Source of the DNA: Candidatus Scalindua sp.
Lineage (GTDB): Bacteria > Planctomycetota > Brocadiia > Brocadiales > Scalinduaceae
Direction of reading: 5' to 3'
Length of the DNA stretch: 32,000 bases
Assembly (NCBI GenBank): GCA_031316235.1
Contig: JALDRA010000001.1
Span: 120,001 to 152,000, forward strand
The notes below the pieces were generated by a model. The model worked only from the letters and a program-made list of their open reading frames with translations, searched no databases and was not told the origin of the DNA. The translations under genes were made by a program, and so were the position numbers. Position 1 is the first letter of the stretch. Each line of letters starts with the position of its first letter. This document shows, piece by piece, positions 1,886 to 31,326 of the stretch.

Positions 1886-2055
1886 ATATACTAAAACCGA
1901 TCTGGTTTTAGATTTCTCTGAAAACCAAAGCCTGGTTACTGGTATTCCCGGACAAAAGTCGCCGGGGACTTTCCCCTGACACAAAACGCCAAGGACTTTA
2001 TCTGCTCCGTTTTTTCCCGGATTTTATCCGAAAACCCTTATACGGTGAGTATATT
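1886..2055 (+). repeat. Intergenic hairpin repeat, copy 1 (subfamily B, about 170 bp with an internal partial duplication)
   Basis: It starts ATATACTAAAACCGATCTGGTTTTAGATTTCTCTGAAAACC and ends CCCGGATTTTATCCGAAAACCC..GGTGAGTATAT. The sequence aligns with the copies at 11508 and 26923 (reverse). The CCGGACAAAAG..GGACTTT module is present twice. Confidence 0.85.
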
Positions 2056-2186
2056 CAGTTCCAGCCTTCTGCTGAAGCCGGCTATTTATAAGGTAGAGAC
2101 TCTCTCCATGGAATATTATTCACAACAGGTCCCGCCCCTGTTCAAAGGAAAACACCAGATCATGTAATATTGTTCCGGGGTAACGC

Positions 2187-2915
2187 TCAGTGCCCGCCGC
2201 CCATAATCTTTGCCTGCTCAGCCTTTTTCTCGGCTGACAGCTGCTTGAACAGTTCAAACTCTGCAGAAGCATCCTTTGACATCCCTTTCAAAAGGTAGAC
2301 AACCCCAAGGTTGTTGTGAGGTTGAGGGTATTTCGGGTCAATCGCTACCGCGTTTTTATAAGCCCCTATGGCCTCATCATATTTTTCTTTTTTAAGTAAT
2401 GCTGAACCAATTTCGTCATATGCAATCGCCGAAATAGGGTTTATCTCAATCGCCTTCTGTAATACTTCAAGTGATTCATCATACATTTCATTATACCGGT
2501 AGGCTATTCCAAGATTAATATATCCGCTCGGATCTTCCGGAGCAAGCTCCAGCACCTTTTTATAAGCAGCAATTGCTTCTTCCATCATACCGCGTGTATA
2601 ATATGCACGTCCCAGGTAGTTGTGTGCTTTGATCATTGCCGGGTCTATCTCTATAGCCTTATTCCATGCCTCAAGCGCCAGATCGAAATTACCCTTTTTT
2701 ATGGTATCAATCCCAAAATTATAATAAGCTTCCGCATCGGTGTTACCCAGATCGGGGAGTTTCTCTACTACCGCCACCTTCTCCTCTTCTTGAACAATTT
2801 CGTCGAAAACAGTACTCTCAGTCACCGGTTCATCGTTTCCGCATCCATAGGTCAGCAGTACCAGAATCGCAAGATAGAAAATACGGTAACGTGTTACGCC
2901 ATAAAAATTTTTCAT
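2187..2915 (-). CDS. TPR-repeat lipoprotein (paralogous in type to 926..1843)
   Basis: 242-aa ORF. The signal peptide ends LLTYGCG, followed by about 5 TPR units. It ends in a Lys/Ala-rich tail. Confidence 0.85.
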   Translation of the reverse strand: MKNFYGVTRYRIFYLAILVLLTYGCGNDEPVTESTVFDEIVQEEEKVAVVEKLPDLGNTDAEAYYNFGIDTIKKGNFDLALEAWNKAIEIDPAMIKAHNYLGRAYYTRGMMEEAIAAYKKVLELAPEDPSGYINLGIAYRYNEMYDESLEVLQKAIEINPISAIAYDEIGSALLKKEKYDEAIGAYKNAVAIDPKYPQPHNNLGVVYLLKGMSKDASAEFELFKQLSAEKKAEQAKIMGGGH

Positions 2916-2975
2916 GTAATATCCTTATTATAAGTAAAAACGTAGTAAACAGTTAAAAATAATAATAATGAATTA

Positions 2976-3965
2976 TTATGACATGCGCTGAATCATAAAG
3001 TTTGCAATCTCCCGAAAAACTTCCTTGTTGTGAACGGGGATATCATCAACCACGGATATAGCCTGTTTTGTCAAATCTTCTGCGTGACTCTGTGCACTCT
3101 CCATAGCACCGTATCTTTGGTAAATTTCGAGGACAATTTTTATCTCTTTCTCGGTAGTCGACTCTCTCTCTTTCGCCATGATCTCTGCAAGGATCTCTCT
3201 ATCATCGTTGTTTGCGGCTTCATATGCATACGCATATAAGAAGCTGGCCTTTCCCTCTTTTATATCAGAACCGATTACGCCTCCCCGCCCCTTGCCCTTT
3301 GTCAAATCGATCAGGTCATCCTTAATCTGGAAAGCAGGCCCCATAAGTCTGCCCAGCTTCCAGATCTTATCAATTACTTCTTCAGAACACCCAGAAACTA
3401 TTGAACCGCCTACCATGCCGCAGGCAAGATAAAATCCAGTTTTTAATTCTACCATATCGAGATATCTCTTCACGCTAAAATCTCTGGCTGCTCTCGCATT
3501 AATGTCCAATGCCTGCCCCTGCACGGTCTTTTCATATGTCAAAGTAAAAATTTCCAGGAGTTTCATCTTTTTATCGAGCGATACCGGACTCGCAAGAACA
3601 CTTTGATATGCACGGGCAAGCAGATAGTCTCCGGCATTAACAGCATTAGCAATCCCATACTTAACCCACACCGTCGGTTGATCACGCCTCATCGTATCAC
3701 CATCCTCAATATCATCATGGAGGAGAAACATGTTATGCAGAATTTCTATTGCCAGAGCAAAATGCAATGCATCATCTGGATTGCCGCCTAATTCTTCACA
3801 CGTAATAAGACAGATGGCAGGCCTGATGCGTTTTCCTCCGGTACGAAGATGGTGCCAGATAGGCTCACTCAGATTATCATCCCTCTCAGGAGGAATGAAT
3901 TCCCTCAACAGGTTATCTATTTTTTTCCCGTAAGACCGAATAGATTCTTCTATGCTTATCTTCAT
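2976..3965 (-). CDS. trans-Polyprenyl diphosphate synthase (FPP/GGPP-synthase family)
   Basis: It has both Asp-rich motifs: LLHDDIEDGD (first DDxxD) and FQIKDDLID (second DDxxD). I place the start at M14 of the tracked ORF (MKISIEES, ATG 3965-3963). The extra 13 codons up to 4004 abut the truncated repeat copy at 4006-4056. Confidence 0.85.
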   Translation of the reverse strand: MKISIEESIRSYGKKIDNLLREFIPPERDDNLSEPIWHHLRTGGKRIRPAICLITCEELGGNPDDALHFALAIEILHNMFLLHDDIEDGDTMRRDQPTVWVKYGIANAVNAGDYLLARAYQSVLASPVSLDKKMKLLEIFTLTYEKTVQGQALDINARAARDFSVKRYLDMVELKTGFYLACGMVGGSIVSGCSEEVIDKIWKLGRLMGPAFQIKDDLIDLTKGKGRGGVIGSDIKEGKASFLYAYAYEAANNDDREILAEIMAKERESTTEKEIKIVLEIYQRYGAMESAQSHAEDLTKQAISVVDDIPVHNKEVFREIANFMIQRMS

Positions 3966-4005
3966 GTATAACACATTCATGTATGGGCAATGTCCCCATT
4001 GCACA

Positions 4006-4056
4006 TTGATTTCTGGTTTCCGGTAAAACCGAAAACCAAATCGGTTTTAGTATATC
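4006..4056 (-). repeat. Intergenic hairpin repeat, copy 2 (truncated; hairpin end only, subfamily A)
   Basis: TTGATTTCTGGTTTCCGGTAAAACCGAAAACCAAATCGGTTTTAGTATATC matches the last ~50 nt of the copies at 20796-20935 and 23509-23653. Confidence 0.8.
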
Positions 4057-4075
4057 AACATCACGGGTAAGGGTA

Positions 4076-4642
4076 TCATGCTCTCCCCAGAAAGAGTCCG
4101 GTACGTGTGTCTACCTTGATAAGTTCTCCTGAGTTTATGAACATGGGAACTTTTACAACATATCCCGTTTCCAGTGTTGCCGGTTTAAATACATTGGTAA
4201 CGGTATCACCTTTTACCCCGGGATCTGTCTCAATGATCTTCAGAGTAACCGATGCCGGCAATTCAACACTTACAGGATTCTCCTCATAAAAGGAAACGTC
4301 AACTTTTGAATTTTCAGACACATATGGCATCTGTTCTCCAATAACTTCCTTTGAAAGAAGAATCTGGTCAAAGGTTTCTGTGTCCATGAAGCAGTAACTG
4401 TCTCCGTCCTGGTACAGATACTCCATCTCTTTATGCTCAAGAAAAACGTCATCAACCTTGTCTGTAGACCTGAAGCGTTTTTGAATTACATTTCCCAGCT
4501 TCAGGCTTTTTATGCTCACCTGCATATGTGCACGCCCTTTGCCCGGCTTGACATGTTGAAAATCGGATACCGAATACAGCTCTCCGTCAACATTGACAAT
4601 GAGTCCTTTTCTAATATCAGTTGCATTTATCAATTTCCTCAC
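4076..4642 (-). CDS. efp: Translation elongation factor P
   Basis: 188 aa. The sequence contains IRKGLIVNVDGELYSVSDFQHVKPGKGRAHMQVSIKSL with the conserved KPGKG loop. Length and three-domain layout are typical of EF-P. Confidence 0.95.
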   Translation of the reverse strand: MRKLINATDIRKGLIVNVDGELYSVSDFQHVKPGKGRAHMQVSIKSLKLGNVIQKRFRSTDKVDDVFLEHKEMEYLYQDGDSYCFMDTETFDQILLSKEVIGEQMPYVSENSKVDVSFYEENPVSVELPASVTLKIIETDPGVKGDTVTNVFKPATLETGYVVKVPMFINSGELIKVDTRTGLFLGRA

Positions 4643-4738
4643 TCCTTTACTAAATCTGTTCCCTCAGGATATTCACAAATTCCCGAATCAGCTAATTCTG
4701 CTTTCCTGCCAGTGGACCCGGCACGCTCTAACCCACGG

Positions 4739-5953
4739 TTACACAAACTCCATCATCACCGAATCAGCCAGCGTAATCCCCCTTGGCGTCAGCCTCACCC
4801 TTTTGTCCTCAAGAGTGATCAGATCCGCTTGTACAAGGCGGTTTACCTGTTGCCCGAAAAGATCCATGACATCAAAACCTGACCTTTCAACAAACTCTTT
4901 TCTTGAAATTCCACGTGTCATTCTCAGGGCCATAATGAGAATCTCTGATGCCCGTCTTTGCCGGGAAAGTTTCTCAGAAAAGCTGATCAGGCCGCTTTGA
5001 GAAAAAACAGCCGAGACATACTCTTTTACGTCACGTATATTACAGAACCGTTCCCCGTTAAGGTAGGAAAATGCACCGGCACCAATACCCACATATTCCC
5101 TGTTCTTCCAATAGGTGATGTTGTGGAGACACTCCCTTCCTTTTCTTGCATAATTTGATATTTCATAATGCAGAAATCCGTCCTGCTCAAGTGTATCCTT
5201 CAGGCATTCATACATCAGCAATTCCTCTTCCTCGGGAAGTCTGCTCAGAATACCCGAATCGATTAATCTGAGAAGTGGTGTCCCCTCCTCATACGAAAGA
5301 CAGTACGCTGAAATATGGTCAGGTTCCAATCTTAACAACTCTTTCAAGTCCGATTTCCATTCACCAAGGGTCTGCCCGGGATACCCGTAGATAAGGTCAA
5401 TGTTAATGTTGCTGAATCCGCTCTCTCTGAGACGAAAAAAAGTCTCTTTTGCCCTTTCAGCAGTATGGATTCTCTCAAGCATCTTCAGATAGATATCATG
5501 AAATGTCTGGATACCAAGGCTGATCCGATTAATATGGCTTCTCTTTACTATCTCCCTCTTTCTATCGTTTAACGTCCCCGGATTTACTTCGATTGAGTAT
5601 TCAACAGGCTTCGAATCATCAGTATATTCAGATATAATATGAAGTAATCTTTCCAGTTGAGTTTCATGCAAAACAGTCGGGGTACCACCACCGATGAAAA
5701 TTGTCCTGAAAGTATATCCTTTGACTCTCGACCGAAGCTCGTACTCAACTGCCCCAAGGTATTCTTCCACCATTCCCGATTGTATCCTGATCGAATTAAA
5801 ATCACAGTATACACATTTCTTTACACAAAAGGGAATATGAATATATAATGCTTGAGAATTGTTTTCCACACTCATCGATTTTCGTGAACAGTGATCGTCT
5901 ACAGGCATGAACTCAAGAGTCACATCAAGGGAGAAATGAGACTCTTTTCGCAC
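4739..5953 (-). CDS. hemW: Radical SAM HemN/HemW-family protein (heme chaperone / oxygen-independent coproporphyrinogen oxidase-like)
   Basis: It has YIHIPFCVKKCVYCDF (CxxxCxxC radical-SAM cluster motif), GGGTP, and a HemN_C-like C-terminus. The true start may be M27 (5875), which would give about 378 aa, the usual HemW length. Confidence 0.85.
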   Translation of the reverse strand: MRKESHFSLDVTLEFMPVDDHCSRKSMSVENNSQALYIHIPFCVKKCVYCDFNSIRIQSGMVEEYLGAVEYELRSRVKGYTFRTIFIGGGTPTVLHETQLERLLHIISEYTDDSKPVEYSIEVNPGTLNDRKREIVKRSHINRISLGIQTFHDIYLKMLERIHTAERAKETFFRLRESGFSNINIDLIYGYPGQTLGEWKSDLKELLRLEPDHISAYCLSYEEGTPLLRLIDSGILSRLPEEEELLMYECLKDTLEQDGFLHYEISNYARKGRECLHNITYWKNREYVGIGAGAFSYLNGERFCNIRDVKEYVSAVFSQSGLISFSEKLSRQRRASEILIMALRMTRGISRKEFVERSGFDVMDLFGQQVNRLVQADLITLEDKRVRLTPRGITLADSVMMEFV

Positions 5954-6147
5954 AAACGGGATTTCGGTGTTAACGTTGTGTCCGGTATCAGTTTTTCAGC
6001 CTACGGCAGGGTAATTCAATGCACGGGGATCCTGAAATCATGGTCTGGGCAGAGCAACACACCCGGCTGAACGGAAAAACTGATCTTACGGGCAGGACCT
6101 GCCCCTTCTTCCCCTTTCATAAAAACCGGAATGAACTCCAGTACAAT

Positions 6148-6804
6148 CTAATTGTTATCGTAATCTTTTCGTACCAATGGGACAAAAACACACCCAAAGA
6201 GCTGTTCCGTTTTCAACCCCTCCTCTGTTTTCGTTGCTCTAACCAGTACCTGCCGTTCCGCAGTACCTATTGGTATAATAATCTTTCCTTTTCCCGACAA
6301 CTGTTCAATCAGTGGTACAGGGATGTCAAATGTAGCAGCAGTGACGATTATACCGGCAAAGGGAGCCTCCGCTGGAAAACCAAGGTTTCCATCTGCAACG
6401 CGCAGGTGCACCCTGTCGCCATAGCCAAGTTCATTCAAAAGTACCATTGCCTTTTGCGCCAGTTCCGGCCTGATTTCTACGGTGTATATGTTTTCCAATA
6501 GTTCAGCCAGCACCGCAGTCTGGTAACCAGAACCTGTTCCGATCTCAAGGATTTTATCTTCTCTTTCAAGGGCAAGAGCCTCTACCATATAGGCGACCAT
6601 ATAGGGTTGAGAAATTGTCTGTCCCGCATCAATTGGCAAAGGAGTGTCCTCGTACGCCCTGTCCCGGAGATCTACGGGTACGAAGCGATGCCGTGGAACT
6701 TTACTCATAGCCGTAAGGACTTCTTCATTGACTATCCCTCTGGCAGCCAATTGACGCTGCACCATCTGCCTGCGTCTTTCATCATATACCGTATCTGGCA
6801 ACAT
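6148..6804 (-). CDS. pcm: Protein-L-isoaspartate O-methyltransferase
   Basis: 218 aa. It has GQTISQP, the SAM motif LEIGTGSGYQTA, and DG..G.....PF..I.VTAA. Confidence 0.9.
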   Translation of the reverse strand: MLPDTVYDERRRQMVQRQLAARGIVNEEVLTAMSKVPRHRFVPVDLRDRAYEDTPLPIDAGQTISQPYMVAYMVEALALEREDKILEIGTGSGYQTAVLAELLENIYTVEIRPELAQKAMVLLNELGYGDRVHLRVADGNLGFPAEAPFAGIIVTAATFDIPVPLIEQLSGKGKIIIPIGTAERQVLVRATKTEEGLKTEQLFGCVFVPLVRKDYDNN

Positions 6805-6844
6805 AGTTCTCTTTCACCGTTAAGGTCCGAGTAAATCCTGAGAC

Positions 6845-7564
6845 TCAGAATGTTGAATGTTTTACTGTCTCTCTGCTCAGTTCGCGACTCATGATCTCCC
6901 TGTAATACCTCAGTCTTGTTACGGGGTTATCTAATCTGCCACCAAAACGTTTTGATGAATCATTATAGATAAGCCTGACGGGTATCTCCCTGATAAGAAG
7001 GCCCAATCTCCACGCCTGTATCCATAACTGAAGAGGCATACCGTAGCTGTATTCGGTAAGATTCATTTTTTTCAGCACGTCTACTTTGTATGCCTTAAAC
7101 CCGCAAAAGGAATCGGTCAAACGGAGATTTGTTATTGTGTTCAATTCCTCAGTTATTTCCCTGTTTATCGCATACCTGTCAGGAGGTACCTGGCTGTATC
7201 CATTCGAATTGAGATATCTCGATCCGGAAACAATATCGTAGTTTGGAATCTGATCGAGAAAAGCGGGTATTTCGTCCGGCAGATGCTGCCCGTCACAATC
7301 CATTGTAATCAGATACTCATATCCATTCACAATTCCATAGTTAAACGCATCAATTATGGTATACCCATATCCCAGGTTTCTCGCATGGGTAATCAGCTTG
7401 ATACCATCGATCTCTGCCAGACATTTCTGAGTACCATCAGTAGATCCATCGTCTATTACGAGAATGTCTAAATTATACTCCTTTATCTGTGATATTAAGT
7501 CGTTAACATATTTTTTCTCGTTGAAAGCAGGCAGCGTAATCAGTGTATTCATTTTTACGTTCAT
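6845..7564 (-). CDS. Family-2 glycosyltransferase (polyprenol-phosphate sugar transferase-like)
   Basis: 239 aa. The sequence has LPAFNE...VIDDGSTDGT...MDCDGQH (DxD-type motif), the pattern of GT2 / Dpm1-like enzymes. Confidence 0.8.
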   Translation of the reverse strand: MNVKMNTLITLPAFNEKKYVNDLISQIKEYNLDILVIDDGSTDGTQKCLAEIDGIKLITHARNLGYGYTIIDAFNYGIVNGYEYLITMDCDGQHLPDEIPAFLDQIPNYDIVSGSRYLNSNGYSQVPPDRYAINREITEELNTITNLRLTDSFCGFKAYKVDVLKKMNLTEYSYGMPLQLWIQAWRLGLLIREIPVRLIYNDSSKRFGGRLDNPVTRLRYYREIMSRELSRETVKHSTF

Positions 7565-9122: not shown

Positions 9123-9145
9123 GAGGTGCTCTCACAATAGCTGCT

Positions 9146-10024: not shown

Positions 10025-10353
10025 GAGTACTCAGCTCCTTCACACGTACAAACGTACCGTTCCCGCACGAAAAGTGCTCAGAAAGGGGGTAGAGTCGATT
10101 CGCTGATTTTCTGATTTTACTTCGTAAGATAAAGATCATATCAATTTTTCTTTCATTTAAATTGACTTCATGTCTCCCTATTCCCCTACAGTGGCAGAAC
10201 AGAAACCCTGTGGTTAAACGAAAGCTGCCCGGATACCAGGCACGCTCTTATTTCGTAACCGGAACGTAATAAGGTACTTGAAGATCATGGAATTATTCCC
10301 ACAACGAAGGAGAAGGGCAGTTTTCGTTCAGCCACATATTGAGAGTCCCGATA

Positions 10354-11226: not shown

Positions 11227-11304
11227 AAAACTTCGAAGCGTTAAGAGAATGCAAAAAAAAGATCATAACAGCTTTGTGTGAGTTATAAATTTAACACGAT
11301 TGTA

Positions 11305-11422
11305 TCTATACTAAAACCGATTTGGTTTTCGGTTTTACCGGAAATCAAATCTTGGTGAAGGTATACTCGCTCAATTTTGTCTCGGATTTTATCCGAAAAC
11401 CATTATAATAAGATGAGTATAC
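11305..11422 (+). repeat. Intergenic hairpin repeat, copy 3 (subfamily A, with an internal ~25-nt deletion)
   Basis: The sequence is TATACTAAAACCGATTTGGTTTTCGGTTTTACCGGAAATCAAATCTTGGTGAAGGTAT|ACTCGCTCAATTTTGTCTCGGATTTTATCCGAAAACC..GATGAGTATAC. It lacks the CCCCGGACAAAAAGCGCCGAGGACTT module present in copy 31184. Confidence 0.85.
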
Positions 11423-11507
11423 ATGGGAAGAAATTGTAAAAAGAGAATCGTATCAACAACACAATTTTTTGTCAAGCTTTCCCTAAGGGGGTATGCAGCG
11501 ATATGAA

Positions 11508-11652
11508 GATATACGAAAACCGATATGGTTTTAGATTTTTCTAAAAACTAAAGCCTGGTTGCTGATATCCCCGGACAGAAAGGCGCCGAGGACCAGTACC
11601 CGCTCCGTTTTTTCCCGGATTGTATCCGTAAACCATTAAAAGATGAGTATAC
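11508..11652 (+). repeat. Intergenic hairpin repeat, copy 4 (subfamily B)
   Basis: The sequence is GATATACGAAAACCGATATGGTTTTAGATTTTTCTAAAAACTAAAGCCTGGTTGCTGATATCCCCGGACAGAAAGGCGCCGAGGAC...CCCGGATTGTATCCGTAAACC..GATGAGTATAC. It lies about 85 nt from copy 3 in the same orientation. Confidence 0.85.
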
Positions 11653-11865
11653 GTTACATTAGGATTGTATGACATTATAGTCTTTATCAGCGTAATGTAC
11701 GGTTCGTAACAATTTTTTCTGTTATGTCTTACCTCCCCCTAAATCCCCATCCCAAGGGGGAATTCAATTGGTGGAGAGCCCAAATTTAATTACATATCCA
11801 TTTTAATTGAGTCGGTTATCCTGATCAAATGATAGCAGACAGATTTTCAGTAAACCCTGAATACC

Positions 11866-11906
11866 AAAAAAGGCGATTACCGTCTCGGAAACGACGGTAA
11901 TCGCCT
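11866..11906 (-). terminator. Rho-independent terminator downstream of the porin gene
   Basis: Perfect 13-bp stem: GGCGATTACCGTC (11872-11884) pairs with GACGGTAATCGCC (11893-11905), with an 8-nt loop. On the minus strand it is followed by a run of 6 T (plus-strand A run 11866-11871). It lies about 90 nt after the stop at 11994. Confidence 0.65.
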
Positions 11907-11993
11907 TGCAATTCACCATACCGATAAATCCAACCCTCTCGACAGGTATACAAACTGGTCTTCGTTCAGGCTGAATCAATCCTGTTAACCGTA

Positions 11994-13559
11994 CTAAAAA
12001 ACGTATTCAACACCTAATCCTGCAATATGTGCATCCTTATCTAACCCATCTGTATCAGCATGACCTCTTGCAGTACCAACGGAATCTTTGTTGAAATGGA
12101 TATACCGGTATTCAGGCCTGAGCAGGAGATTTTCGTGCAGCTTTATATTCAATGTTGCGGTAAAGTCCCACATTGTCTGGCCGAAAAATCTCAAACCGTC
12201 AGCATCATCAAAATACTCCCATCTTGTTGCAAGCTGATACTGGTCAGTAAAGTCGTAGATGGCATACGCTGCGGCTCCCCACCAATGGGCATTACTTTTA
12301 CCCACTACGGTAGAAGTGGTCACCTCCTCATGTGTATGTCCATCACCGGTGGAAACAACTTCTGTAGTATCTATAGTATTAGCCTTACCATCCTCCACCA
12401 TACCATAATCGACGTTCAGCATCAATTTCAGCTTGTCCACGGGCGTCTGCCATGAAACGATAAAATCTACCATCTGTGTAAGTCCGCCATTCGTATCTTC
12501 ACGCTGGTCGGTAGGTGCTCTCCCGGATCGCTGTTCCCAACCCTCGTTTCCATGGATCCCTCCTAAAGAGACGAACCAGTTTTCATTCGGCTCATAGGAA
12601 AGATACCACCCGAATGACTTTGACTCGTTGTTATCAATATTCGAATCCCACCCGTTTACGCCGTAAAGTTTCATGGTCATACCTTCCGGCATATAGTTTG
12701 ACAGATCCATGCTGATACCCGTATGGGTAAACGGTATCGCGTTATTATAGAGGATACCGTGCTGGTAATTGGGGTTACCGATGTTCTCTACCAGCTCCAG
12801 GCCTATCCAGGTGTACATCTTACCCATCGTAAAGGTGATACCTTTTCCGATTGGCGCTTCCCAGGAGATATTGGCAGCAGATACGGTAAAGATATCGTCC
12901 CTGTCTACATCATTTGTACCGTGCAGGCCTGATTTTTCACCATAAAAGGTAATCCTCTTTGCAAACTCACCCCAGTAGGTATGTACCTGCCATCCGATTG
13001 GGTGTTCGTCCGTAACCTGTTTGTCAAAAAAGAGTGCAAAGCTTTGGAACGTAAAGGAGTCATTCTCATTCTCGCCGATAAAGTTGACACCGCCGTCAGC
13101 ACCGGTGGTAAGAGAATTCTGCCTTTGCGCCGTATCACCATGAAGGTCAAAGTTATACATGTAGTTGACATCAACAAATCCGCTCAAGGTGACATCCTTG
13201 AAGGCACTCAGAAACGGAGACTCCTCAGCCCACTTCGCTATTTCTGATCGAATAGAAGAAGTCTGTGCACTCTTTGACTGCTCAATGATCTCACTCCTCA
13301 GCTCTTCTCTGAAACCAATAGATGCCTCCCGGGCAGCCCTCTGAGCATCAGCCCTTGTCTCGACCGCTACCTCCTTCAGCATCTCCTGCCTGATCTCTTC
13401 CAGTAATTCAGCCTTTAACTCTTCTTTCAACTCCGCCTTCATTCTTTCTCTGCTTGTCTCTTGTGCAAACGTTACGCTTCCGAGCGATAAAACCAGCACA
13501 GCAAATAACGGCAGGTACAACATAATTTTCCTCTTCATATAACACTCCTCCCCATTCAC
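11994..13559 (-). CDS. Outer-membrane beta-barrel porin-like protein with an N-terminal coiled-coil segment
   Basis: The signal peptide is KRKIMLYLPLFAVLVLSLGSVTFAQE (likely start M8, 13538). About 70 aa of Glu/Lys heptad-like sequence follows (ELKEELKAELLEEIRQEMLKE). After that come alternating aromatic/Gly-rich strands. The C-terminus is GLGVEYVF, with the terminal Phe typical of BAM-dependent barrels. The family assignment (OmpL-like/bbp2-type) is a guess. Confidence 0.6.
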   Translation of the reverse strand: MNGEECYMKRKIMLYLPLFAVLVLSLGSVTFAQETSRERMKAELKEELKAELLEEIRQEMLKEVAVETRADAQRAAREASIGFREELRSEIIEQSKSAQTSSIRSEIAKWAEESPFLSAFKDVTLSGFVDVNYMYNFDLHGDTAQRQNSLTTGADGGVNFIGENENDSFTFQSFALFFDKQVTDEHPIGWQVHTYWGEFAKRITFYGEKSGLHGTNDVDRDDIFTVSAANISWEAPIGKGITFTMGKMYTWIGLELVENIGNPNYQHGILYNNAIPFTHTGISMDLSNYMPEGMTMKLYGVNGWDSNIDNNESKSFGWYLSYEPNENWFVSLGGIHGNEGWEQRSGRAPTDQREDTNGGLTQMVDFIVSWQTPVDKLKLMLNVDYGMVEDGKANTIDTTEVVSTGDGHTHEEVTTSTVVGKSNAHWWGAAAYAIYDFTDQYQLATRWEYFDDADGLRFFGQTMWDFTATLNIKLHENLLLRPEYRYIHFNKDSVGTARGHADTDGLDKDAHIAGLGVEYVF

Positions 13560-13838
13560 TAAAAAAATAAACTAAAAAACTTCAGGATGATAATACATGC
13601 GAGTTGTGGGTGACACGTATTTCCCCCCAATAGTACCGAGCAAAGCCCGCACACAAAAATTAAGAGACCTGTCGAATGTGCAGAAAACCAATGGGCATCA
13701 ATTTCTCACCATCAATTCAAGTTATTTGACGGAATAAAATCAGCCACTCTTTCACACACATCGCATTCAAGACAATTATGATAAAAGTCAGCGTTGTCCG
13801 GTTAGGTTTTTGCATGATTTATTTATTGTTCCAAAGCC

Positions 13839-13916
13839 GTCATTCCCGCATGTTTTTAGCGGGAATCCAGGATGAACGAGACCCTCTGGATACCCGATAA
13901 AAGCACTCGGGTACGA
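13839..13916. repeat. Double-hairpin small repeat of the GTCATTCCCGC...GCGGGAATCCAG type
   Basis: The sequence is GTCATTCCCGCatgtttttaGCGGGAATCCAGgatgaacgagaccCTCTGGATACCCGAtaaaagcacTCGGGTACGAC. It contains two stem-loops plus a CCAG/CTGG pair. The left half is a motif I recognise as a widespread short intergenic repeat in environmental bacteria. There is only one copy in this window. Confidence 0.5.
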
Positions 13917-14053
13917 CAAAAGCCGCACGTGCAAATTCCTAACCGGAAGCTATTGGATAAAAGTGAATTTTTTTATGAAAATTTACCCCTGTTCATGCCT
14001 ATCATAAACTTAAAAAAATAGACCTTCTCAACCACCGTGGCCATGTTTCAGAC

Positions 14054-14143
14054 AAAGACAAGGCATCGGCAAACAGCTTATCGGACTTTAGGAGAGGTAA
14101 AAGCGCCCTTTTAAGACTATCAAAAGCCGAATGCCTTGTCTTT
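14054..14143. repeat. Long-range inverted repeat (about 17 bp arms, about 55-nt spacer)
   Basis: AAAGACAAGGCATCGGC (14054-14070) is complementary to GCCGAATGCCTTGTCTTT (14126-14143). This gives 13 perfect bp, then 4 more across a 1-nt bulge. A third partial copy, AGAATGCCTTGTT, lies near 14328-14340. Confidence 0.5.
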
Positions 14144-15027
14144 ACACCGAACGCAGGCAATCTGGCAGAAATAAAAACTCAGAGTAACTTTACACCCAAA
14201 ACAAGCAATAATGATACCAAAAAATATTCATTAAGGGATTGATCAGGAACTCGTTGATCTCTGGAAGCAATTTTCCAATAAAAAGAGTCTGTATTGAGAG
14301 GACCAATCCGTCACAAGCCCTTAAATCAGAATGCCTTGTTACTATTAATTGGTATATACGTGAACCATCAAGGTTTCAGTTTATCCCGGAAAACTTTCTC
14401 ATGTCCCCCAGGATTGCACTCACACAGCCGATTCATCGAACAGGCACAAAAACGGTAGATACCAGCCAATACCGGAGCAACGGATAACACTTGATCTTCT
14501 TTCTTATAACTGATGCTGGTCACCAGCGAATCCTAAGTCCCTGATATAAAACACGTACGATAATTTAGCGAATCATGAGACTTCCGGAAAGCACTTCTAT
14601 CCCTGAAGGAAATACTTCACCCCCCGAATAATTGAGCAATTGAACCATTTGCTGAAAAATCCCAGGGAGGCTGACGAGAGTGCTTCCCATCACTCTTCAT
14701 GATTTTGCGCTTAAGACCTCTGGGTAAACCAGCCCCCTCACCGGCAAACCGGTGAAAGCAGGCACGGGATATTTCCCCAGTAAAAGTAATTTGGGATATA
14801 GTGAACGCTGGAATCTGTACATGTGATGATTAAGAAGTACTGCAAATTCGCTTTTGCAGATTTTAAAAGCTGCAGATCAAGATATAAATTGGGGTTAACA
14901 AAAAGCCGATAAAAAGGGATTTACGCGAAAACAATTATCGTGGCTATGCATAAGCTAATAATAAGATTGTCTCATCCATCCTCGCTTAACAAGTTAAAAG
15001 CAGGATTACTTCGCCCATACAGGTAAG

Positions 15028-15408
15028 TTAATGAATTTCGTCACTTTCCAACTCTTTTTCACTCGGGTCACCCAGATGTTTATCACCAGAATGGATGTGT
15101 ATTGAATCTTCCAGAGGTAATACATAAATTCTCCCATCACCCCCCTTATCGGTTTTCGCGACATTTCTGATTATCTCAATCACCTTTTTCAGCTTATCGT
15201 CCGGTACAACGAATTCAAGCTCTTCCCTCTTCAGGGCATCAACCCTTTGCTCATAAACCCTTCCCCGATATACCTGCGTGATTGTTTTTTTCTGTTCTCC
15301 GAAACCCATTGTCTGGTTTGCGGTGATCCCATGATAACCCAAACCGTAGAGTACATCTTTGAGTTCATAAGTCTTTTCCGGCCTTAAGATAACCTTGACA
15401 AGCTTCAT
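15028..15408 (-). CDS. Divergent P-II (GlnB/GlnK) family signal-transduction protein with a C-terminal acidic/His extension
   Basis: 126 aa. The sequence MKLVKVILRPEKTYELKDVLYGLGYHGITANQTMGFGEQKKTITQVYRGRVYEQ...TDKGGDGRIYVLPLEDSIHIHSGD aligns over its full length to P-II. The T-loop is 1 residue longer with the Tyr retained, and the B-loop has GDGRIY for GDGKIF. There is about 14 extra aa at the C-terminus (PSEKELESDEIH). No adjacent amt gene is present. Confidence 0.75.
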   Translation of the reverse strand: MKLVKVILRPEKTYELKDVLYGLGYHGITANQTMGFGEQKKTITQVYRGRVYEQRVDALKREELEFVVPDDKLKKVIEIIRNVAKTDKGGDGRIYVLPLEDSIHIHSGDKHLGDPSEKELESDEIH

Positions 15409-15681
15409 ATCTGTATATCCCCTTTTTCAGCTATGGAAAAAAATAAAACGCATCAACTCCACCTGGAATAGCACCACCAAGCGGAGTATCCATGCATACA
15501 ACGCTGCAGTCCCCTCTCCTTTACACAAAAAAAAAACAGCTTGCTGCGCTATAGTAACTGGCAGCCTTAAATCACTAAACTATATTTCCAAGATAATGTC
15601 AATTGAAAACCAAGGTTTTACCTCTTGCCCGTTTCCTCCATCGTCTGCCTCAATCAACCTCAGCACAATCCCCGCTTAAAG

Positions 15682-16812
15682 TCATTGAACATCCAGAATA
15701 TCCACATCATCAAGCTTGTACGGGGCCATAAACCCTCCAGGAGAGACCAGCCTGCCGCTATACGTTATAACGTCACCCATTACCAGATTCATCATTTTTT
15801 GTTTTTTTGTCCAATCAACTCTCAACTGAACATCTATTGAATTATCCTTGTGCCTGATCCCGATTTTATTCCAGTCGTAAACGGCAATTCCTTTATAACC
15901 AATTTCACCTGTCCATTTCACATATTTCCCTTCGAACCGGTCATTCCACACCCTCTTTCTTTCCGATCTTCCAAGCGAACCTCTTCTTCCAAACAAATTA
16001 TCAAATTCCTGAAATGAGATATCCAAGACGGCAACCTCTTCCCTCTTTCCATCCGTTAAACCATCTTTACGAGGAATTTCACCCTGAAAAGGGATGAGGG
16101 GTGAACCATCAGTCAAAATTCCCTTCATGCCTGCAGCAGGTTCTTCCGATCTGATATTTTCGGGCAGGTTGATGGCTGATAGCCCTGCTTCCCTGGCTGC
16201 CCGGTTTATGGTATCAGCCTTTGCCCCCAAAGATTCCGCATCCTCTTGCCTCTGCTCTTTTTTTACCAGGCACTTTCCATATAACGAGTCAAACTCTTCC
16301 TGAAATTTTTTTATGACATCTGGATCATCAATAAAAAGAGCATTCTCATAATTAAACTTTTCTGAGTATTCAGACCAGCGGTAAGACCCGGTGACAACTA
16401 TCCCGGAGTCGAAGAGAGCAAAACTGTTATTCATGTCACCTCCGATTTTTCCTTTGAGGAATTGCACAGGGAAACCTTCATCCTGCAGAAATTCAACTAC
16501 CGGCTGGTATTTATTCTTTTGTTTATAATCGAGAATAATCCTTACCTCAACCCCTCTCTCCCTTGCCTCATAAAGAGCCTCTGCTATTTCTCCCGCACTG
16601 AACGTGAGGAGTGCAATATCGATCGATTTTTCTGAGGCATTGATAACCTTGATAATATTGTCCCGGATAAATCCGTCAGGAGAAAAAAAGACCTCAGTCT
16701 TCGCAGAGAGGGTGCCTGCAAAACATATGACAATGCAGAGGCACTTCCCCAGCGAGCTGAGTCGTGCTGCAATTTCAGGTGCAAATCTGATACTTTCGCA
16801 AATATAAAGCAT
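15682..16812 (-). CDS. Secreted PLD/Nuc-like domain protein with a degenerate HKD motif and a C-terminal OB-fold-like domain
   Basis: The N-terminal half aligns with Nuc-type single-HKD phospholipase-D-family nucleases (FFSPDG...SIDIALLTFS...RGVEVRIILD...VVTGSYRWSE..NYENALFIDD). The H-x-K-x4-D position reads N-N-S-F-A-L-F-D (16408-16431). The start is placed at ATG 16812, preceded by GAGGGGAG about 10 nt upstream. The tracked ORF extends to 16926. A hydrophobic signal-like segment is present (CLCIVICFAGTLSA). The last ~110 aa show the F.GKYV.W.G.I....V.L.......L..GDVIT..G.L pattern of tRNA_anti-like OB folds; this is an inference. Confidence 0.7.
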   Translation of the reverse strand: MLYICESIRFAPEIAARLSSLGKCLCIVICFAGTLSAKTEVFFSPDGFIRDNIIKVINASEKSIDIALLTFSAGEIAEALYEARERGVEVRIILDYKQKNKYQPVVEFLQDEGFPVQFLKGKIGGDMNNSFALFDSGIVVTGSYRWSEYSEKFNYENALFIDDPDVIKKFQEEFDSLYGKCLVKKEQRQEDAESLGAKADTINRAAREAGLSAINLPENIRSEEPAAGMKGILTDGSPLIPFQGEIPRKDGLTDGKREEVAVLDISFQEFDNLFGRRGSLGRSERKRVWNDRFEGKYVKWTGEIGYKGIAVYDWNKIGIRHKDNSIDVQLRVDWTKKQKMMNLVMGDVITYSGRLVSPGGFMAPYKLDDVDILDVQ

Positions 16813-20795: not shown

Positions 20796-20935
20796 GTATA
20801 CTCATCTCATACTGGATTTCGGATACAATCCGGGATACAATTGAGCGAGTAAAGTCCTCGACGCTTTTTGCCCGGGGATACCTTCACCAATATTTGATTT
20901 CCGGTAAAACCGAAAACCAAATCGGTTTTAGTTAT
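20796..20935 (-). repeat. Intergenic hairpin repeat, copy 5 (subfamily A, full length)
   Basis: The sequence is GTATACTCATCTCATACTGGATTTCGGATACAATCCGGGATACAATTGAGCGAGTAAAGTCCTCGACGCTTTTTGCCCGGGGATACCTTCACCAATATTTGATTTCCGGTAAAACCGAAAACCAAATCGGTTTTAGTTAT. It is nearly identical to the reverse complement of copy 31184-31326. It starts 22 nt after the glnK stop. Confidence 0.9.
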
Positions 20936-26533: not shown

Positions 26534-26655
26534 AGGTATTATATCGCCAGACAACTTCAGGCCGAAAAAAGCTTTCTGTTCGCTTGACTTCAAGAAATTA
26601 TCCGGTAGAATGGAAAATTAATTTTACTATAAAACAGATAGAGAGGGGTGACCTT

Positions 26656-26910
26656 ATGCATAAAAAAGGTAAAACAGTAAGAAAATGTTATGATTGTATC
26701 CTTAATCTGGGAGACCATTGTGCTGTTTATGAAGAGCCACATGATAGATGGCATCACTCTAAGTGTTCAAGTTATAATGACAAAGAGCTGTATAACGAGT
26801 ATCTTGAAAATCAAAAAAAACATCCCGTAGACCAGGCCAAAGAGCTAAGAAAGGAAAAGGCAAAAAAAGTACATACCGCAGAACACCGACAGGGGAGAAA
26901 GAGCCCTTAG
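26656..26910 (+). CDS. Small Cys/His-rich basic protein (hypothetical, possible metal-binding)
   Basis: 84 aa from ATG 26656, preceded by GAGAGGGG 7 nt upstream. The sequence is MHKKGKTVRKCYDCILNLGDHCAVYEEPHDRWHHSKCSSYN... followed by a Lys/Glu-rich tail. It has a CxxC...HC...H...HH..C pattern. It lies 122 nt downstream of the fusion gene on the same strand. I recognise no family. Confidence 0.45.
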   Translation: MHKKGKTVRKCYDCILNLGDHCAVYEEPHDRWHHSKCSSYNDKELYNEYLENQKKHPVDQAKELRKEKAKKVHTAEHRQGRKSP

Positions 26911-26922
26911 GTCATAAATTGT

Positions 26923-27066
26923 GATATACCTATCTTATACTGGATTTCGGATGAAATCCGGAAAAAAACGAAACGGGGAAATTCCTCGGTGCCTTTTGTC
27001 CGGGGATGCCGGCAGCAGGGCTTCGGTTTTTAGAAAATCCTAAAACCAAATCGGTTTTAGGATATC
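26923..27066 (-). repeat. Intergenic hairpin repeat, copy 7 (subfamily B, full length)
   Basis: The sequence is GATATACCTATCTTATACTGGATTTCGGATGAAATCCGGAAAAAAACGAAACGGGGAAATTCCTCGGTGCCTTTTGTCCGGGGATGCC...TTTTTAGAAAATCCTAAAACCAAATCGGTTTTAGGATATC. It starts 12 nt after the stop of the 84-aa ORF. Confidence 0.85.
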
Positions 27067-27157
27067 TCTTCCGTTTACCGCTGTCAGTAAAAAGCGACCC
27101 TGCCTCTTTGCGGTAAATGTTGGAAGGGATCTCAATCAGGAATCTGCGAACACTTAA

Positions 27158-28495
27158 TCAATTGTGTGCCGTTTCAAGTTTCTTTAAGACGGTATCTTTT
27201 ACCAGCCCATAGTCCGGAGGAAGTTCTACCGGCAGATTTACATATTGTGGTTGAACTTCCTCCAATTTGTTCTCATGGTACCTGACCTTAAAATCGGTAA
27301 ATTTCAACCCATGAGCCGTAGAGATAATCACAATTCGCTCATCCTTCCTGATCTGTTTTCTTTTAACCAGCTTAAATAACGCTGCCAATGCAACACCCGT
27401 ATGAGGGCAGTTGAAAAGCCCCGTAGTATCAGCCAGTGCTGCAGCATTCGCAAGTTCATCCTCTGTTGCCTGCTCTACAATCCCGTCAAACAGTTTCAAA
27501 ATCTTAATCGCCTTGTTGATACTGATGGGATTACCTATTTGAATAGCACTCGCAAGTGTTTTTTTCGCCTTTATCGGATGATACTCCTTAAAACCCTTCT
27601 GATAACACCGATACAGGGGATTAGCCCTTGAGGCTTGAACACACACTATTCTGGGAAGTTTCGTAATCATACCCAGGTCCCTCATCAGGAGAAATCCTTT
27701 ACCAAGTGCACTGATATTTCCCAGATTTCCACCCGGTATTATAATAACGTCAGGTACTTCCCAGTCAAACTGCTGGACTAATTCAATGCTGATGGTCTTC
27801 TGCCCCTCAATTCGAAGAGAATTCATCGAGTTCGCAAGATAAATAATATTTTCTGCACAGATCTTACGCACTATTTCCATGCAACCATCAAAATCGGTAT
27901 CTAATGAAAGCGTCAGGGCTCCATTCGCTATCGGCTGAATCAACTGTGCCGTCGAAACCTTGTCTTTAGGCAGGAATACTATGGCAGGTATACCCGCGGC
28001 AGCACAATATGCAGCAAGAGCTGCAGAAGTATCACCTGTCGAGGCACATGCAACACCCCGTATCTCCTTTCCCTCAGAAATCATCTGCTTCACCATGGAA
28101 ACAAGGACTGTCATGCCAAGGTCCTTAAATGAACCGGTATGAGCATTCCCGCACTGCTTAATCCATAAGTTATCTACCCCGATAATATTACCAAGACGTT
28201 CTGCCCAGAAGAGATTGCTGGCCCCTTCATAAAGAGAAACAATGTTCGTATCCTCCACATTTGGACAAACCACCTCCTTCTTCCCCCAGACAGCGCTGCC
28301 GTAGGGCCATCTCGTCCTTCTGTAGCGGTCGTCAAACAGCTTTTTCCACGATTCGGGTTTACGTCGTTTCAGCTTCTCAATATCGTGCTGGACCTCAAGT
28401 AACCCCCCACACTTTCTACAGGTGTAGATAATCTCGTTCAGCTCATACTTCTCATCACACCCTGACGAGCACCGAAACCATGCCTTTTGCCCCAT
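27158..28495 (-). CDS. thrC: Threonine synthase (long form with an N-terminal zinc-ribbon)
   Basis: 445 aa. It has an N-terminal C..C...C..C ribbon (CSSGCDEK...TCRKCGG). The PLP-Lys motif is [10 protein letters not shown], followed by [10 protein letters not shown] and PGGNLGN, as in ThrC. Confidence 0.9.
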
Positions 28496-28598
28496 TAGTA
28501 TCCTTTATCAGTCATCCAAAAACGCTAAAAAATTAATTATAAAAATATCACTGTTTATTACAAGCAAAATATGCACCCCTGCAGCGCTCAACCACTAT

Positions 28599-29180
28599 TT
28601 ATTCAAGTAAAAGTAGACCGAAATATTTAACATATTCATTTTTATGTTCAAGGAATTTTATCTCAAAACCATTATTCCGTACAGTACCAAATACATCAAT
28701 GCCACATGCCTCCATTGACGGCCTTGCATCTGTTGGTAAAGTACACGATTCCCCGATAGTGCATTCTGTACAAAGCGGGCATGGACCGGCACCTAAGGCA
28801 AAAGCCTTATAGAACCCTGCAAAATTTGCCTTGTGCTCAACAGCAAGAAGCATATCCTTGAAATCTCTTCCGGGCGGCTGTCCTTCAATGAGAAGAGCGC
28901 TCTTATAGGAGTTCAATAGCTCGCGGGTCTCTTTATAGGAAGGTGTATATGGAGGGCAGGTCTTAAACTTACCAAATTTTGAACAACCGAAACGGCATTT
29001 CAACTGAACCCAGGGCTCAACTATTACGCTCTCCGTAGTGATCAACCGTGAAGCCGTTGCCCCCAGCTTTACCAGCTCACTACATAACGGTTCCACCCTG
29101 TCATCATTTACACAATACATAGACTGATCACCTGAAAAACATAGAGTAACAAGGTAAAATAGTATGGGTAACCGCGTCAA
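28599..29180 (-). CDS. DUF2284-like predicted metal-binding protein
   Basis: The Cys pattern LKCRFGCSKFGKFKTCPPYTP ... GAGPCPLCTEC is what I recall for the DUF2284 family. The start is likely M21 (29120, MYCVNDD), because the first 20 codons look non-native. Confidence 0.6.
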   Translation of the reverse strand: MTRLPILFYLVTLCFSGDQSMYCVNDDRVEPLCSELVKLGATASRLITTESVIVEPWVQLKCRFGCSKFGKFKTCPPYTPSYKETRELLNSYKSALLIEGQPPGRDFKDMLLAVEHKANFAGFYKAFALGAGPCPLCTECTIGESCTLPTDARPSMEACGIDVFGTVRNNGFEIKFLEHKNEYVKYFGLLLLE

Positions 29181-29371
29181 ATGTCAACATGAAAGTACAA
29201 TTTGACAGTTCTTTCCTAATATGGTACTTTACCGCACTGAAACATTCCGGAAAATTGCTTCATGCAATGATACCTCTGCCTTCTCTTTACTTATTTGAAA
29301 AGGAATTTGCTATTCCCGCATTAACGTTTTAGTTTTGAAATCTCTATTACCGTTGTAACGGACCAGGTCTC

Positions 29372-30373
29372 ATGAAATTCACCTTACAGCAAATTAATGA
29401 AATTATTGATGGAAAGCTTTTCGGCAACGGAAACACCCTTATTACGGGTGTAGCAAGTATAGATCAGTCACAAGAGGGTGATATCAGCTTTATCAAAGAT
29501 GAAAGCCTTATCAATAAAATTTACACAACCAGGGCATCTGCCATTGTGGCGCACAGACCAATAAAAGATACTCAAAAACCTTTAATCGTCGCCGGAAACC
29601 CATTCCTGGCATTCACAAAATTTTTATACGTTGTTTCAGATCAGAAAAAATCTCAGATTTGTGCTGTCCATGAATCTGCAGTTATTGCAGACACCTCCTG
29701 TATCGGCCAGAATGTCTCTATAGGAGCAAATGTAATTATCGATGAAGATACCAAGATCGGCAACAACGTTACCATATATCCACATGTCTACATTGGGAAA
29801 AACTGCACGATAGGTGATTACTCCACAATCTATCCACACGTAACAATCCGGGAAGATGTAGTGATGGGCAAACGAGTGATAATCCATCCAGGTACAACAA
29901 TTGGCGGAGACGGATTTGGATACCTTCAAATAAAACAGAAGCATGTAAAAATCCCACAGGTTGGTTCCGTTGAAATTGGCGATGATGTTGAAATTGGTTC
30001 AAATGTCACGATAGACAGAGCAACTCTTGACAAAACGATCATTGGTTCCGGTGTAAAGATTGACAATCATTCCCACGTAGCCCATAACGTCATTATCGGG
30101 GAAAACAGCATGCTTATTGCATATGCAAAAATTGCGGGAGGAGCAAGAATTGGTAAAAATGTCATGATTGCTGAAGATGTAGGCATCACAGATCATGCAG
30201 TCATTGGCGACAACTGTATTATCGGCGGAGGTTCAAATGTGTATAAGAGCCTTGAACCAGGCTCTGTAGTCTGGGGTTCTCCAGCCAAACCAATTAACCA
30301 GGAAAAAAGAATACAGATAATACTGAAGAAGCTCCCGGCAATTTATAAGAAGATAAAAGATATTACTCATTAA
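29372..30373 (+). CDS. lpxD: UDP-3-O-acylglucosamine N-acyltransferase
   Basis: 333 aa. It has an LpxD N-terminal domain (L..I...I.G.L.G......I.GVASI..A..GDISF). A long run of hexapeptide (left-handed beta-helix) repeats follows, then a C-terminal helix. Confidence 0.9.
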   Translation: MKFTLQQINEIIDGKLFGNGNTLITGVASIDQSQEGDISFIKDESLINKIYTTRASAIVAHRPIKDTQKPLIVAGNPFLAFTKFLYVVSDQKKSQICAVHESAVIADTSCIGQNVSIGANVIIDEDTKIGNNVTIYPHVYIGKNCTIGDYSTIYPHVTIREDVVMGKRVIIHPGTTIGGDGFGYLQIKQKHVKIPQVGSVEIGDDVEIGSNVTIDRATLDKTIIGSGVKIDNHSHVAHNVIIGENSMLIAYAKIAGGARIGKNVMIAEDVGITDHAVIGDNCIIGGGSNVYKSLEPGSVVWGSPAKPINQEKRIQIILKKLPAIYKKIKDITH

Positions 30374-30384
30374 TATCAAGACAG

Positions 30385-30458
30385 GTATACTCATCTCATA
30401 CTGGATTTCGGATAAAATCCGAGATAAAATTGAGCGAGTAAAGTCCCCGGACAAAAAA
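30385..30458 (-). repeat. Intergenic hairpin repeat, copy 8 (truncated/rearranged; non-hairpin end only)
   Basis: GTATACTCATCTCATACTGGATTTCGGATAAAATCCGAGATAAAATTGAGCGAGTAAAGTCC is identical to the reverse complement of copy 31184-31326 over about 62 nt. It then switches to CCGGACAAAAAAGG, the same module in the opposite orientation, and ends. It starts 11 nt after the lpxD stop. Confidence 0.8.
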
Positions 30459-30656
30459 GGGGTCAGAATGATGAAAGAATAAAGCTGAACCAACCGTTTC
30501 TCTCTTCTTACCTATAATTCCGGCATTTGCAAAAAAACAGTTCTCTTTAAAATAGTACTTGACATTATCTGAATATTTTTATTACCATCTTGCCGAATGG
30601 TATTCAGTAGAATTATCCCCGTTGATTTTCTCTGTCGACGTAACATTTCAGATTTT

Positions 30657-31022
30657 ATGATTATAGATACGAAATTAAAGCAAGTGCATTTCACGAAAGC
30701 ATGCTTAGTTTTACTATTATGCTTCTCAATTCTTTCGGAAGCTGTTTTCTCGTTTGAAGACACTTTCGATAGAGGAGAAATAGGTTCTGCTTCCTCAGAA
30801 GGCACGAGCACCTGCAATGAACACCACTGTCCTGTTGTCCCCAATCAACCCTGCCAGCATTGCCCGGTCTGTTGTACCGTTTCTCATCATTTTACAAATC
30901 AGTCAACCGGAATTACTTTCCATTTTAACAATTCATCTCAACCTTTTTCACTTGCTGAAGAGGTTCTTGACAAAGAACTCTTTGCAAAAACACTCTTTCG
31001 TCCTCCACAATCAATTCTTTAA
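30657..31022 (+). CDS. Small secreted Cys/His-rich protein (hypothetical) upstream of the outer-membrane efflux gene
   Basis: 121 aa from ATG 30657. It has a signal-like segment, MIIDTKLKQVHFTKACLVLLLCFSILSEAVFS, then CNEHHCPVVPNQPCQHCPVCCTVSHHF. It overlaps an antisense 110-aa ORF (30512..30844), so coding status is uncertain. The alternative start is 30597. Confidence 0.4.
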   Translation: MIIDTKLKQVHFTKACLVLLLCFSILSEAVFSFEDTFDRGEIGSASSEGTSTCNEHHCPVVPNQPCQHCPVCCTVSHHFTNQSTGITFHFNNSSQPFSLAEEVLDKELFAKTLFRPPQSIL

Positions 31023-31183
31023 TTCTTCCATTTTTATTCAAGTGTTCCCCTGTTTCATTGATGACTCAATACACAATAGAGTTTGTTTGTGAAAAACAAG
31101 ACTTGCAGTCGGTCATGTGGTCCAATTACGTTCATAGAAAACTATTTTGTAGCTCAAGTATTAGTCAGCAATCAGTGATACAG

Positions 31184-31326
31184 GATATACTAAAACCGAT
31201 TTGGTTTTCGATTTTACCGGAAACCAAATCCTGGTGAAGGTATCCCCGGACAAAAAGCGCCGAGGACTTTACTCGCTCAATTTTATCTCGGATTTTATCC
31301 GAAATCCAGTATGAGATGAGTATATC
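31184..31326 (+). repeat. Intergenic hairpin repeat, copy 9 (subfamily A, full length; used here as the reference copy)
   Basis: The sequence is GATATACTAAAACCGATTTGGTTTTCGATTTTACCGGAAACCAAATCCTGGTGAAGGTATCCCCGGACAAAAAGCGCCGAGGACTTTACTCGCTCAATTTTATCTCGGATTTTATCCGAAATCCAGTATGAGATGAGTATATC. The 8-nt terminal inverted repeat is GATATACT / AGTATATC. Confidence 0.9.

Follow-up and report, generated by a model that had tools for sequence, protein, structure and literature searches.

A Scalinduaceae family of small, TA-flanked intergenic repeats, probably transposase-mobilised miniature elements

To gain insight into a short, hairpin-rich intergenic repeat of anammox planctomycetes, we analysed a stretch of 32,000 nucleotides from Candidatus Scalindua sp. 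(GenBank assembly GCA_031316235.1, contig JALDRA010000001.1, positions 120,001 to 152,000 of the forward strand; hereafter the window), in which nine copies of the repeat are found. The repeat is multicopy, carries conserved inverted ends, is bounded by a duplicated TA with a preference for A-TA-T targets, occupies lineage-specific sites and has a dispensable interior. We consider it probable (about 0.8) that the copies are miniature inverted-repeat transposable elements (MITEs) of a Scalinduaceae-specific family, integrating at TA and depending for their mobility on a DDE transposase that acts in trans and is most likely an IS630/Tc1-mariner enzyme, and that with their freely evolving interior they are mostly neutral passengers. 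The original prediction of a mobile MITE-type repeat, made from the window, is upheld by empty sites, further copies and conserved termini.

The 19-nt core of the repeat, CTAAAACCGATNTGGTTYT, was matched eight times in the window when up to two mismatches were allowed, against 0.02 matches expected from dinucleotide shuffles. Using this 19-mer, we scanned species-representative genomes, which yielded at least 119 stretches (loci numbered L001 upward). Among the matches listed, nearly all lie in metagenome-assembled genomes (MAGs) of Candidatus Scalindua or Scalinduaceae (SCAELEC01, RBC_AMX3, CBDCUS01, B27T3L11, S. arabica and others); about a dozen 19-mer matches in unrelated taxa are without a profile match and represent chance 19-mers. 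A profile made from seven window copies re-found all nine by nhmmer and gave 170 hits in the window and the 119 loci, 160 of them beyond the window and 108 of full length. Many further copies with conserved termini, as had been expected of a mobile element, are thus present beyond the window. Three partly sampled genomes contained 50, 55 and 27 elements and, besides the index copy, about one more copy was found per 18-28 kb, from which a copy number on the order of a few hundred per genome can be roughly extrapolated. True copies were also observed on a few short MAG contigs labelled Marinamargulisbacteria or Neomarinimicrobiota (L103, L104), which may be mis-binned. Plasmid, phage and viral collections gave no true copies and no BLAST hits, the five viral 19-mer matches being due to chance. 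No description of MITEs or of the present repeat in Scalindua was found in the library of papers searched. As far as this search reached, the family is new to the group; its kind is ordinary, and it is mechanistically unsurprising.

The limits of the element were determined from 107 full copies with flanks, in which only TATACT...AGTATA is conserved and the bases farther out vary. TA is found directly outside TACT in 102 of the 107 copies and outside AGTA in about 105, and the adjacent outer position holds A on the left (61/107) and T on the right (49/107), a palindromic target preference of the form A-TA-T. The element proper is TACT...AGTA, and the outer TA is the target-site duplication. 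Consequently, the 8-nt inverted repeat GATATACT...AGTATATC by which the element had been delimited does not hold as such: because of the flank table it has to be read as a composite of element, duplication and preferred target sequence, with the variable outer G/A...T/C being flank that reflects the A-TA-T preference. The ends of the element form a bipartite, imperfect inverted repeat of 24 nt with 16 matching positions, composed of the outer TACT and an inner TGGTTTTCGG (5' end, TACTAAAACCGATTTGGTTTTCGG; 3' end read inward, TACTCATCTCATAATGGTTTTCGG). The inner motif TGGTTTTCGG / CCGAAAACCA is kept together with TACT...AGTA across the 107 copies, and each inner motif provides the left arm of a subterminal hairpin.

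Three independent comparisons of filled and empty sites bore out the suggested target-site duplication of the TA that borders TACT...AGTA. In the first, a copy of the present repeat (family 1) lies inside a different repeat, "family X"; the filled sites in L011/L018 read GCGCCTTG-TA-(TACT...GAGTG)-TA-CCTGGGCAG, family-X paralogues without the insertion have GCGCCTTG-TA-CCTGGGCAG in eight cases, and in a ninth (L107) the junction is TAT. In the second, the filled site in L037 (CTCTGA-TA-element-TA-TCTCG) has an empty paralogue in L040 (CTCTGA-TA-TCTCG). In the third, an element of a sibling family (family 2, described below) is located within a family-1 copy of L117 at CCGGTA-TA-AAATTG, with TA on either side. 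Two cruder cross-species checks also fit TA insertion, namely L054, with two copies, against the empty L062 (...TTGA-TA-TAAGGAAGG) and the panC-porin spacer of the window against L003. A 3-bp (NTA) or 4-bp duplication, considered on account of GTA on both sides in L011, was ruled out by the flank table of the 107 copies.

The window is syntenic with L003 (CBDCUS01) and L098 (SCAELEC01) at ~75-87% identity, and pairs differing in the presence of copies were obtained for the window with both of these loci, for L054 with L062 and for L055 with L005. The window copies at 11307 and 11510 are missing from the syntenic L003 site and the copy at 26925 has no counterpart at the syntenic L098 site, while at 15450-15684 it is the window that is empty and L003 that is filled. 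Across orthologous regions, about seven of nine sites are filled in one species only and two seem to be shared (L011/L099 and L039/L044). Judged from these alignments, most insertions are lineage-specific. Furthermore, the identity among copies is 86-94% within a genome and 78-90% from one genome to another, compared with ~75-87% for orthologous genes, a pattern that fits amplification continuing after the lineages split.

In the window itself, the repeat finder recovered every copy originally reported, as direct or inverted families, and a nine-way alignment gave a consensus of ~143 nt. Together with the nhmmer profile, this places the nine copies where they had been predicted:

1887-2053, plus strand: family-1 copy of 167 nt including both flanking TA, with a tandemly duplicated central module
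4011-4054, minus strand: truncated copy that retains just the 5' end with hairpin 1 (model positions 2-46), flanked by efp and the gene for polyprenyl synthetase
11307-11421, plus strand: short-subfamily copy of 115 nt, without the central module
11510-11651, plus strand: standard copy of ~142 nt, hairpin 1 being a TAGA...TCTA variant
20797-20935, minus strand: standard copy beginning 23 nt past the glnK stop codon
23511-23651, minus strand: standard copy lying between amt and a divergently oriented 945-aa gene
26925-27064, minus strand: standard but diverged copy flanked by convergent genes
30386-30450, minus strand: truncated copy that retains just the 3' part (model positions 78-142) and lies 12 nt past the lpxD stop codon
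31186-31324, plus strand: standard copy nearest to the family consensus, with the top nhmmer score (154 bits)

The first of these gave two overlapping nhmmer hits (model positions 2-91 and 61-142), and its form with a duplicated central module was found again in other genomes. In the copy at 20797-20935 the 5' terminus is mutated, with AGTTAT in place of AGTATA on the plus strand. Among the seven copies described as roughly full-length, the one placed at 11305 belongs to a common 115-nt subfamily without the central module and is not damaged, and the one placed at 1886 reaches 167 nt via tandem duplication. Similarly, the copies at 20796, 30385 and 31184 had been called almost identical; we measured 93% (20797/31189) and 98% (30386/31260). 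The distances of ~12-23 nt to preceding stop codons were right, and ORF (open reading frame) calls agreed that all window copies are intergenic. The hairpin described as degenerate at 11508 and 20796 has an intact CGGAT...ATCCG stem at both places and differs in the loop alone. The genes around the window copies, as judged from ORF calls and Pfam, are ordinary chromosomal ones, encoding TPR proteins and polyprenyl synthetase, efp, panC, a porin, amt/glnK, a PLP enzyme and lpxD. The copies at 20797-20932 and 31189-31324 are inverted with respect to each other, 93% identical over 136 nt and 10.3 kb apart; the pair brackets amt, the 945-aa gene, the PLP enzyme gene and lpxD and might allow this segment to invert.

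The interior of the element is modular. Forms of ~55, ~115, ~143 and 165-205 nt share the same termini: the mini forms of ~55 nt consist of a single hairpin (e.g. L106 and L002), the 115-nt and 143-nt classes differ by a central module of ~27 nt, and the 165-205-nt classes contain either the central module in duplicate or, within hairpin loops, the GC-rich palindromes P1 and P2. No ORF is conserved across copies, and the lengths of 55-205 nt remain under the MITE bound of ~600 bp. Constant ends and a free interior are expected if transposase recognition alone is selected. The sibling family 2 is ~180 nt long and forms a near-perfect fold-back, TA-TACCCATTGCAAAATGGTTTTAGG...CCGAAAACCAATTTGTGATGGGTA-TA, with the end architecture and the inner TGGTTTTCGG of family 1. 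It was found at the following loci outside the window:

L013:4156-4337: family-2 element
L098:3600-3776: family-2 element
L014, L018, L040, L075, L084, L106 and L117: family-2 elements

The family-2 element of L098 fills a spacer that matches an empty site of the window (29121-29179). In L117, three elements are nested at positions 390-2607, where a family-1 MITE is split at TA by a family-2 element (429-2506), which in turn carries a 415-aa ORF (580-1827, YADD motif) that resembles a group II intron reverse transcriptase.

As to the mechanism, we infer cut-and-paste mobilisation in trans by an IS630/Tc1-mariner DDE transposase. A transposase supplied in trans would bind the inner motif at both ends, would cut at the TACT termini and would integrate the element at TA, preferably A-TA-T, with duplication of the TA, the last step being shown by the empty sites. 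With the ends alone needed, the interior would be free to gain, lose and duplicate hairpin modules, and copies would persist mainly in intergenic DNA, where most look like neutral passengers and not like regulatory or RNA elements. Strict TA duplication combined with an A-TA-T preference is the classic signature of IS630/Tc1-mariner elements, which to our knowledge constitute the sole prokaryotic insertion sequence family with strict TA duplication as its hallmark; the transposase would hence most likely be of this type. IS630-family insertion sequences have been reported in other anammox genomes (PMC7814187).

Several points weigh against this interpretation. Among TATAC...GTATA pairs with matching ends 0.7-3 kb apart, no autonomous element with the MITE ends was found in ~1 Mb of Scalinduaceae sequence, and the IS630/Tc1-mariner motif P[DEQ][LFM]NP[IVLAM][ED] was encountered in none of the six-frame translations of 126 sequences (~1 Mb). 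With no autonomous transposase found in this sequence, it is two properties that point to IS630/Tc1-mariner, namely the duplication of 2 bp (TA) and the preferred target. Moreover, the terminal repeat is short and imperfect beside those of many IS630-derived MITEs, some IS5-family subgroups also give 2-3 bp duplications (ISfinder family descriptions), and the context statistics given below rest on gene calls from a crude longest-ORF caller. Two groups of candidates for the autonomous partner were discarded. Pairs of element ends 0.6-4 kb apart proved to be neighbouring MITEs, one being a family-2 copy with a group II intron, and the repeated ORFs in the loci encode a sugar transferase, an alanine dehydrogenase and the rve/HTH transposase of a 1417-bp insertion sequence with unrelated ends. 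This insertion sequence, which we read as IS481-like, is present in RBC_AMX3 at L055:5823-7239 and L061:144-1559 in two copies that are 99.7% identical, with ends …CCACAACATCGTATACAC unrelated to those of the MITE.

The main rival to the IS630 assignment is an origin from, and mobilisation by, an IS5-family element (IS427/ISL2/IS1031, with 2-3 bp duplications) or another DDE family. Such an origin would agree with the lack of an IS630-type transposase or signature motif in the ~1 Mb sampled, and the 3' end of the copy in L011/L018, where GTGTA matches TTGTA of the left flank, could hint at a 3-bp NTA duplication. Over the 107 copies, however, the base outside the TA differs between left and right (e.g. 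GG-TATACT...AGTATA-T), and since the outer bases do not match, a 3-bp duplication is not general; the strict TA and the A-TA-T preference are, in addition, IS630/Tc1-mariner-like. We therefore regard this origin as unlikely, while it is the best placed of the alternatives.

Less credit still can be given to a wider scheme, in which family 1, family 2, the 55-nt mini forms and a lineage-specific end variant, TACACATCACAAAATAGTTTTCGG, would together form a Scalinduaceae superfamily without a recognisable partner, perhaps moved by an unrecognised type of transposase. Hairpin loops would perhaps serve as landing pads for P1, P2, family 2 and the group II intron, giving a nested-parasite system, which we deem improbable. 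The palindromic modules P1 (CCTGCCTGTGCGTAAGGAACGCACGCAGACAGG) and P2 (CCCGCCCGGCCTGTCAGCCGTTCGGACGGG) are located in loops of the MITE hairpins 3 and 1, with examples among others at:

L074:4527-4559: P1/P2 module
L054:6328-6360: P1/P2 module
L118:2324-2353: P1/P2 module

P2-like sequence also occurs outside the MITE. The P1/P2 junctions are identical across many copies, and identical junctions in all of these make single insertions followed by amplification more likely than landing-pad behaviour.

The analysis of gene context bears on a further alternative, namely that the repeats act in the first place as RNA or DNA structures (terminators, REP/BIME-like mRNA-stabilising hairpins or small RNAs) that are kept by selection, with mobility being incidental. 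Of 126 scorable copies, 112 are intergenic, while ~73% of the sequence is ORF, a bias that purifying selection against gene disruption gives any MITE. In favour of a structural function, copies fold better than shuffled controls (z -2 to -6.5), many are located less than 30 nt from gene ends, and two of the approximately nine orthologous sites are common to different species. The better folding of the TATACTCATC... strand, which is consistent, is due to G-U pairs. Against it, orientation with respect to transcription is random in 64 tandem intergenic cases (33 vs 31, p = 0.9), and so the common orientation that had been read from 6-7 of the nine window copies does not extend to the larger set. 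Near gene 3' ends the ratios are 14:16 within 40 nt, 18:25 within 80 nt and 30:29 within 150 nt, with similar values near 5' ends (11 vs 14). Neither is there a preference for 3' over 5' ends, as the median distances are 130 nt (3') and 157 nt (5') and 26 vs 21 copies lie within 30 nt. The RNA-level role suggested earlier had been tied to orientation and stop-codon proximity and, with neither bias present, it is not upheld. RNAalifold on 33 copies gave a covariation term of just -0.4 kcal/mol, with a double change in 2 of 20 pairs; the copies are too similar for covariation to give more than negligible support. Furthermore, the short and mini forms show that the interior modules, hairpins among them, can be dispensed with. 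No Rfam match was obtained at the gathering score for the whole window, or at E<=1 over 11250-15100 (two copies), and scans for consensus terminators and promoters showed nothing notable at the copies. A primarily structural function is thus very improbable in our view; adoption of individual copies for host functions is possible.

The weakest alternative, that the repeats are REP/REPIN or IS200/IS605 PATE sequences, which a Y1 HUH transposase (RAYT/TnpA) would move in single-stranded form by recognising subterminal hairpins, could appeal to the hairpin at each end (TTTTCGG-loop-CCGAAAA type) and the short strictly terminal repeat, but it can practically be set aside, because each of the three empty-site comparisons shows a 2-bp duplication, which Y1 HUH transposition does not give, and because the element is bounded by symmetric inverted repeats instead of asymmetric left and right ends; the target is moreover the palindromic A-TA-T and not a one-sided tetra- or pentanucleotide.

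Compared with known repeat systems, the family appears functionally closest to MITEs of the IS630/Tc1-mariner type and, among the well-known bacterial repeats, to the Correia elements. With the former (eukaryotic Stowaway and bacterial IS630-mobilised MITEs) it shares the small size, the lack of coding capacity, the terminal inverted repeats, the strict TA duplication in an AT-rich palindromic context, the high copy number, the intergenic position and subfamilies that differ inside; it differs by a sequence unlike any described, by the bipartite imperfect ends (16/24) and by its anammox planctomycete host. Correia elements (CREE/NEMIS) of Neisseria are likewise ~100-160 nt long, occur in a long and a short form distinguished by an internal segment, duplicate TA, have ends starting with TATA... 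and are present in hundreds of intergenic copies; no autonomous partner is known in their host, just as none was found in the ~1 Mb of Scalinduaceae sequence sampled. They have, however, 26-bp terminal repeats, an IHF site and documented effects on promoters and RNase III processing, of which none was observed for the Scalindua family, and their host belongs to a different phylum. The Scalindua termini (TACTAAAACCG... / TACTCATCTC...) presumably differ from the Correia ends, and we take the resemblance to be functional only, the sequences being presumably unrelated. REP/BIME and REPIN sequences are also short, palindromic, intergenic and highly repeated, but they lack a target duplication and possess a GTAG-type head and a RAYT gene, whereas the Scalindua ends are TACT and TA is duplicated. 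No RAYT-type features or RAYT context were seen at the Scalindua repeat, and with a target-site duplication present the earlier "REP-like" label is no longer appropriate. The enterobacterial and streptococcal ERIC/IRU and RUP/BOX repeats resemble the family as imperfect palindromes of ~100-150 nt, intergenic and with internal insertion/deletion variants; ERIC has orientation- and transcription-linked features of its own, a bias that the Scalindua copies do not exhibit, and the sequences are unrelated.

The family opens no new mechanism, being a standard TA-duplicating MITE, and its relevance is primarily practical. Clean intergenic annotation of these uncultured, biogeochemically important anammox bacteria needs the family to be taken into account, and sites that differ in presence or absence could be used as fine-scale strain or lineage markers in metagenomes of oxygen-minimum zones. 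A bearing on the fragmentation of Scalindua assemblies is also suggested: L120 (a 6.9-kb contig of Logan SRR28338161), the only public contig that encodes exactly the GlnK of the window, stops 48 nt past the glnK stop codon. As it ends where the window has the copy at 20797, assemblies may break at the repeat.

Other repeats were noticed in the course of the analysis. Family X, mentioned above as host of an insertion, has a copy in the window (10190-10343) that had been missed originally; it is ~147 nt long and near-palindromic, with ends like GTGAACGAAAAC. With 64 BLAST hits in 36 of the 119 loci, it represents a second abundant Scalindua repeat, and its central TA is a recurrent landing site of the family-1 MITE. 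The window also contains a region of 1.47 kb with few ORFs (13560-15028), which extends from a PII-like gene to the porin gene. In it, a segment of 105 nt (14046-14150) is 94% identical to L003:3393-3497, the flanking genes being ~80% identical, and contains a long stem, AAAGACAAGGCATCGGC...GCCGAATGCCTTGTCTTT, with no Rfam match at E<=1; the segment may be a conserved non-coding RNA or a regulatory element in this nitrogen-metabolism locus. Finally, a small repeat with inverted ends, CCGGTTAGG.TTTTGCA...TGCAAATTCCTAACCGG, is located at 13796-13955 and shows ~81% identity with L057 and L093 and a weaker similarity with L017.

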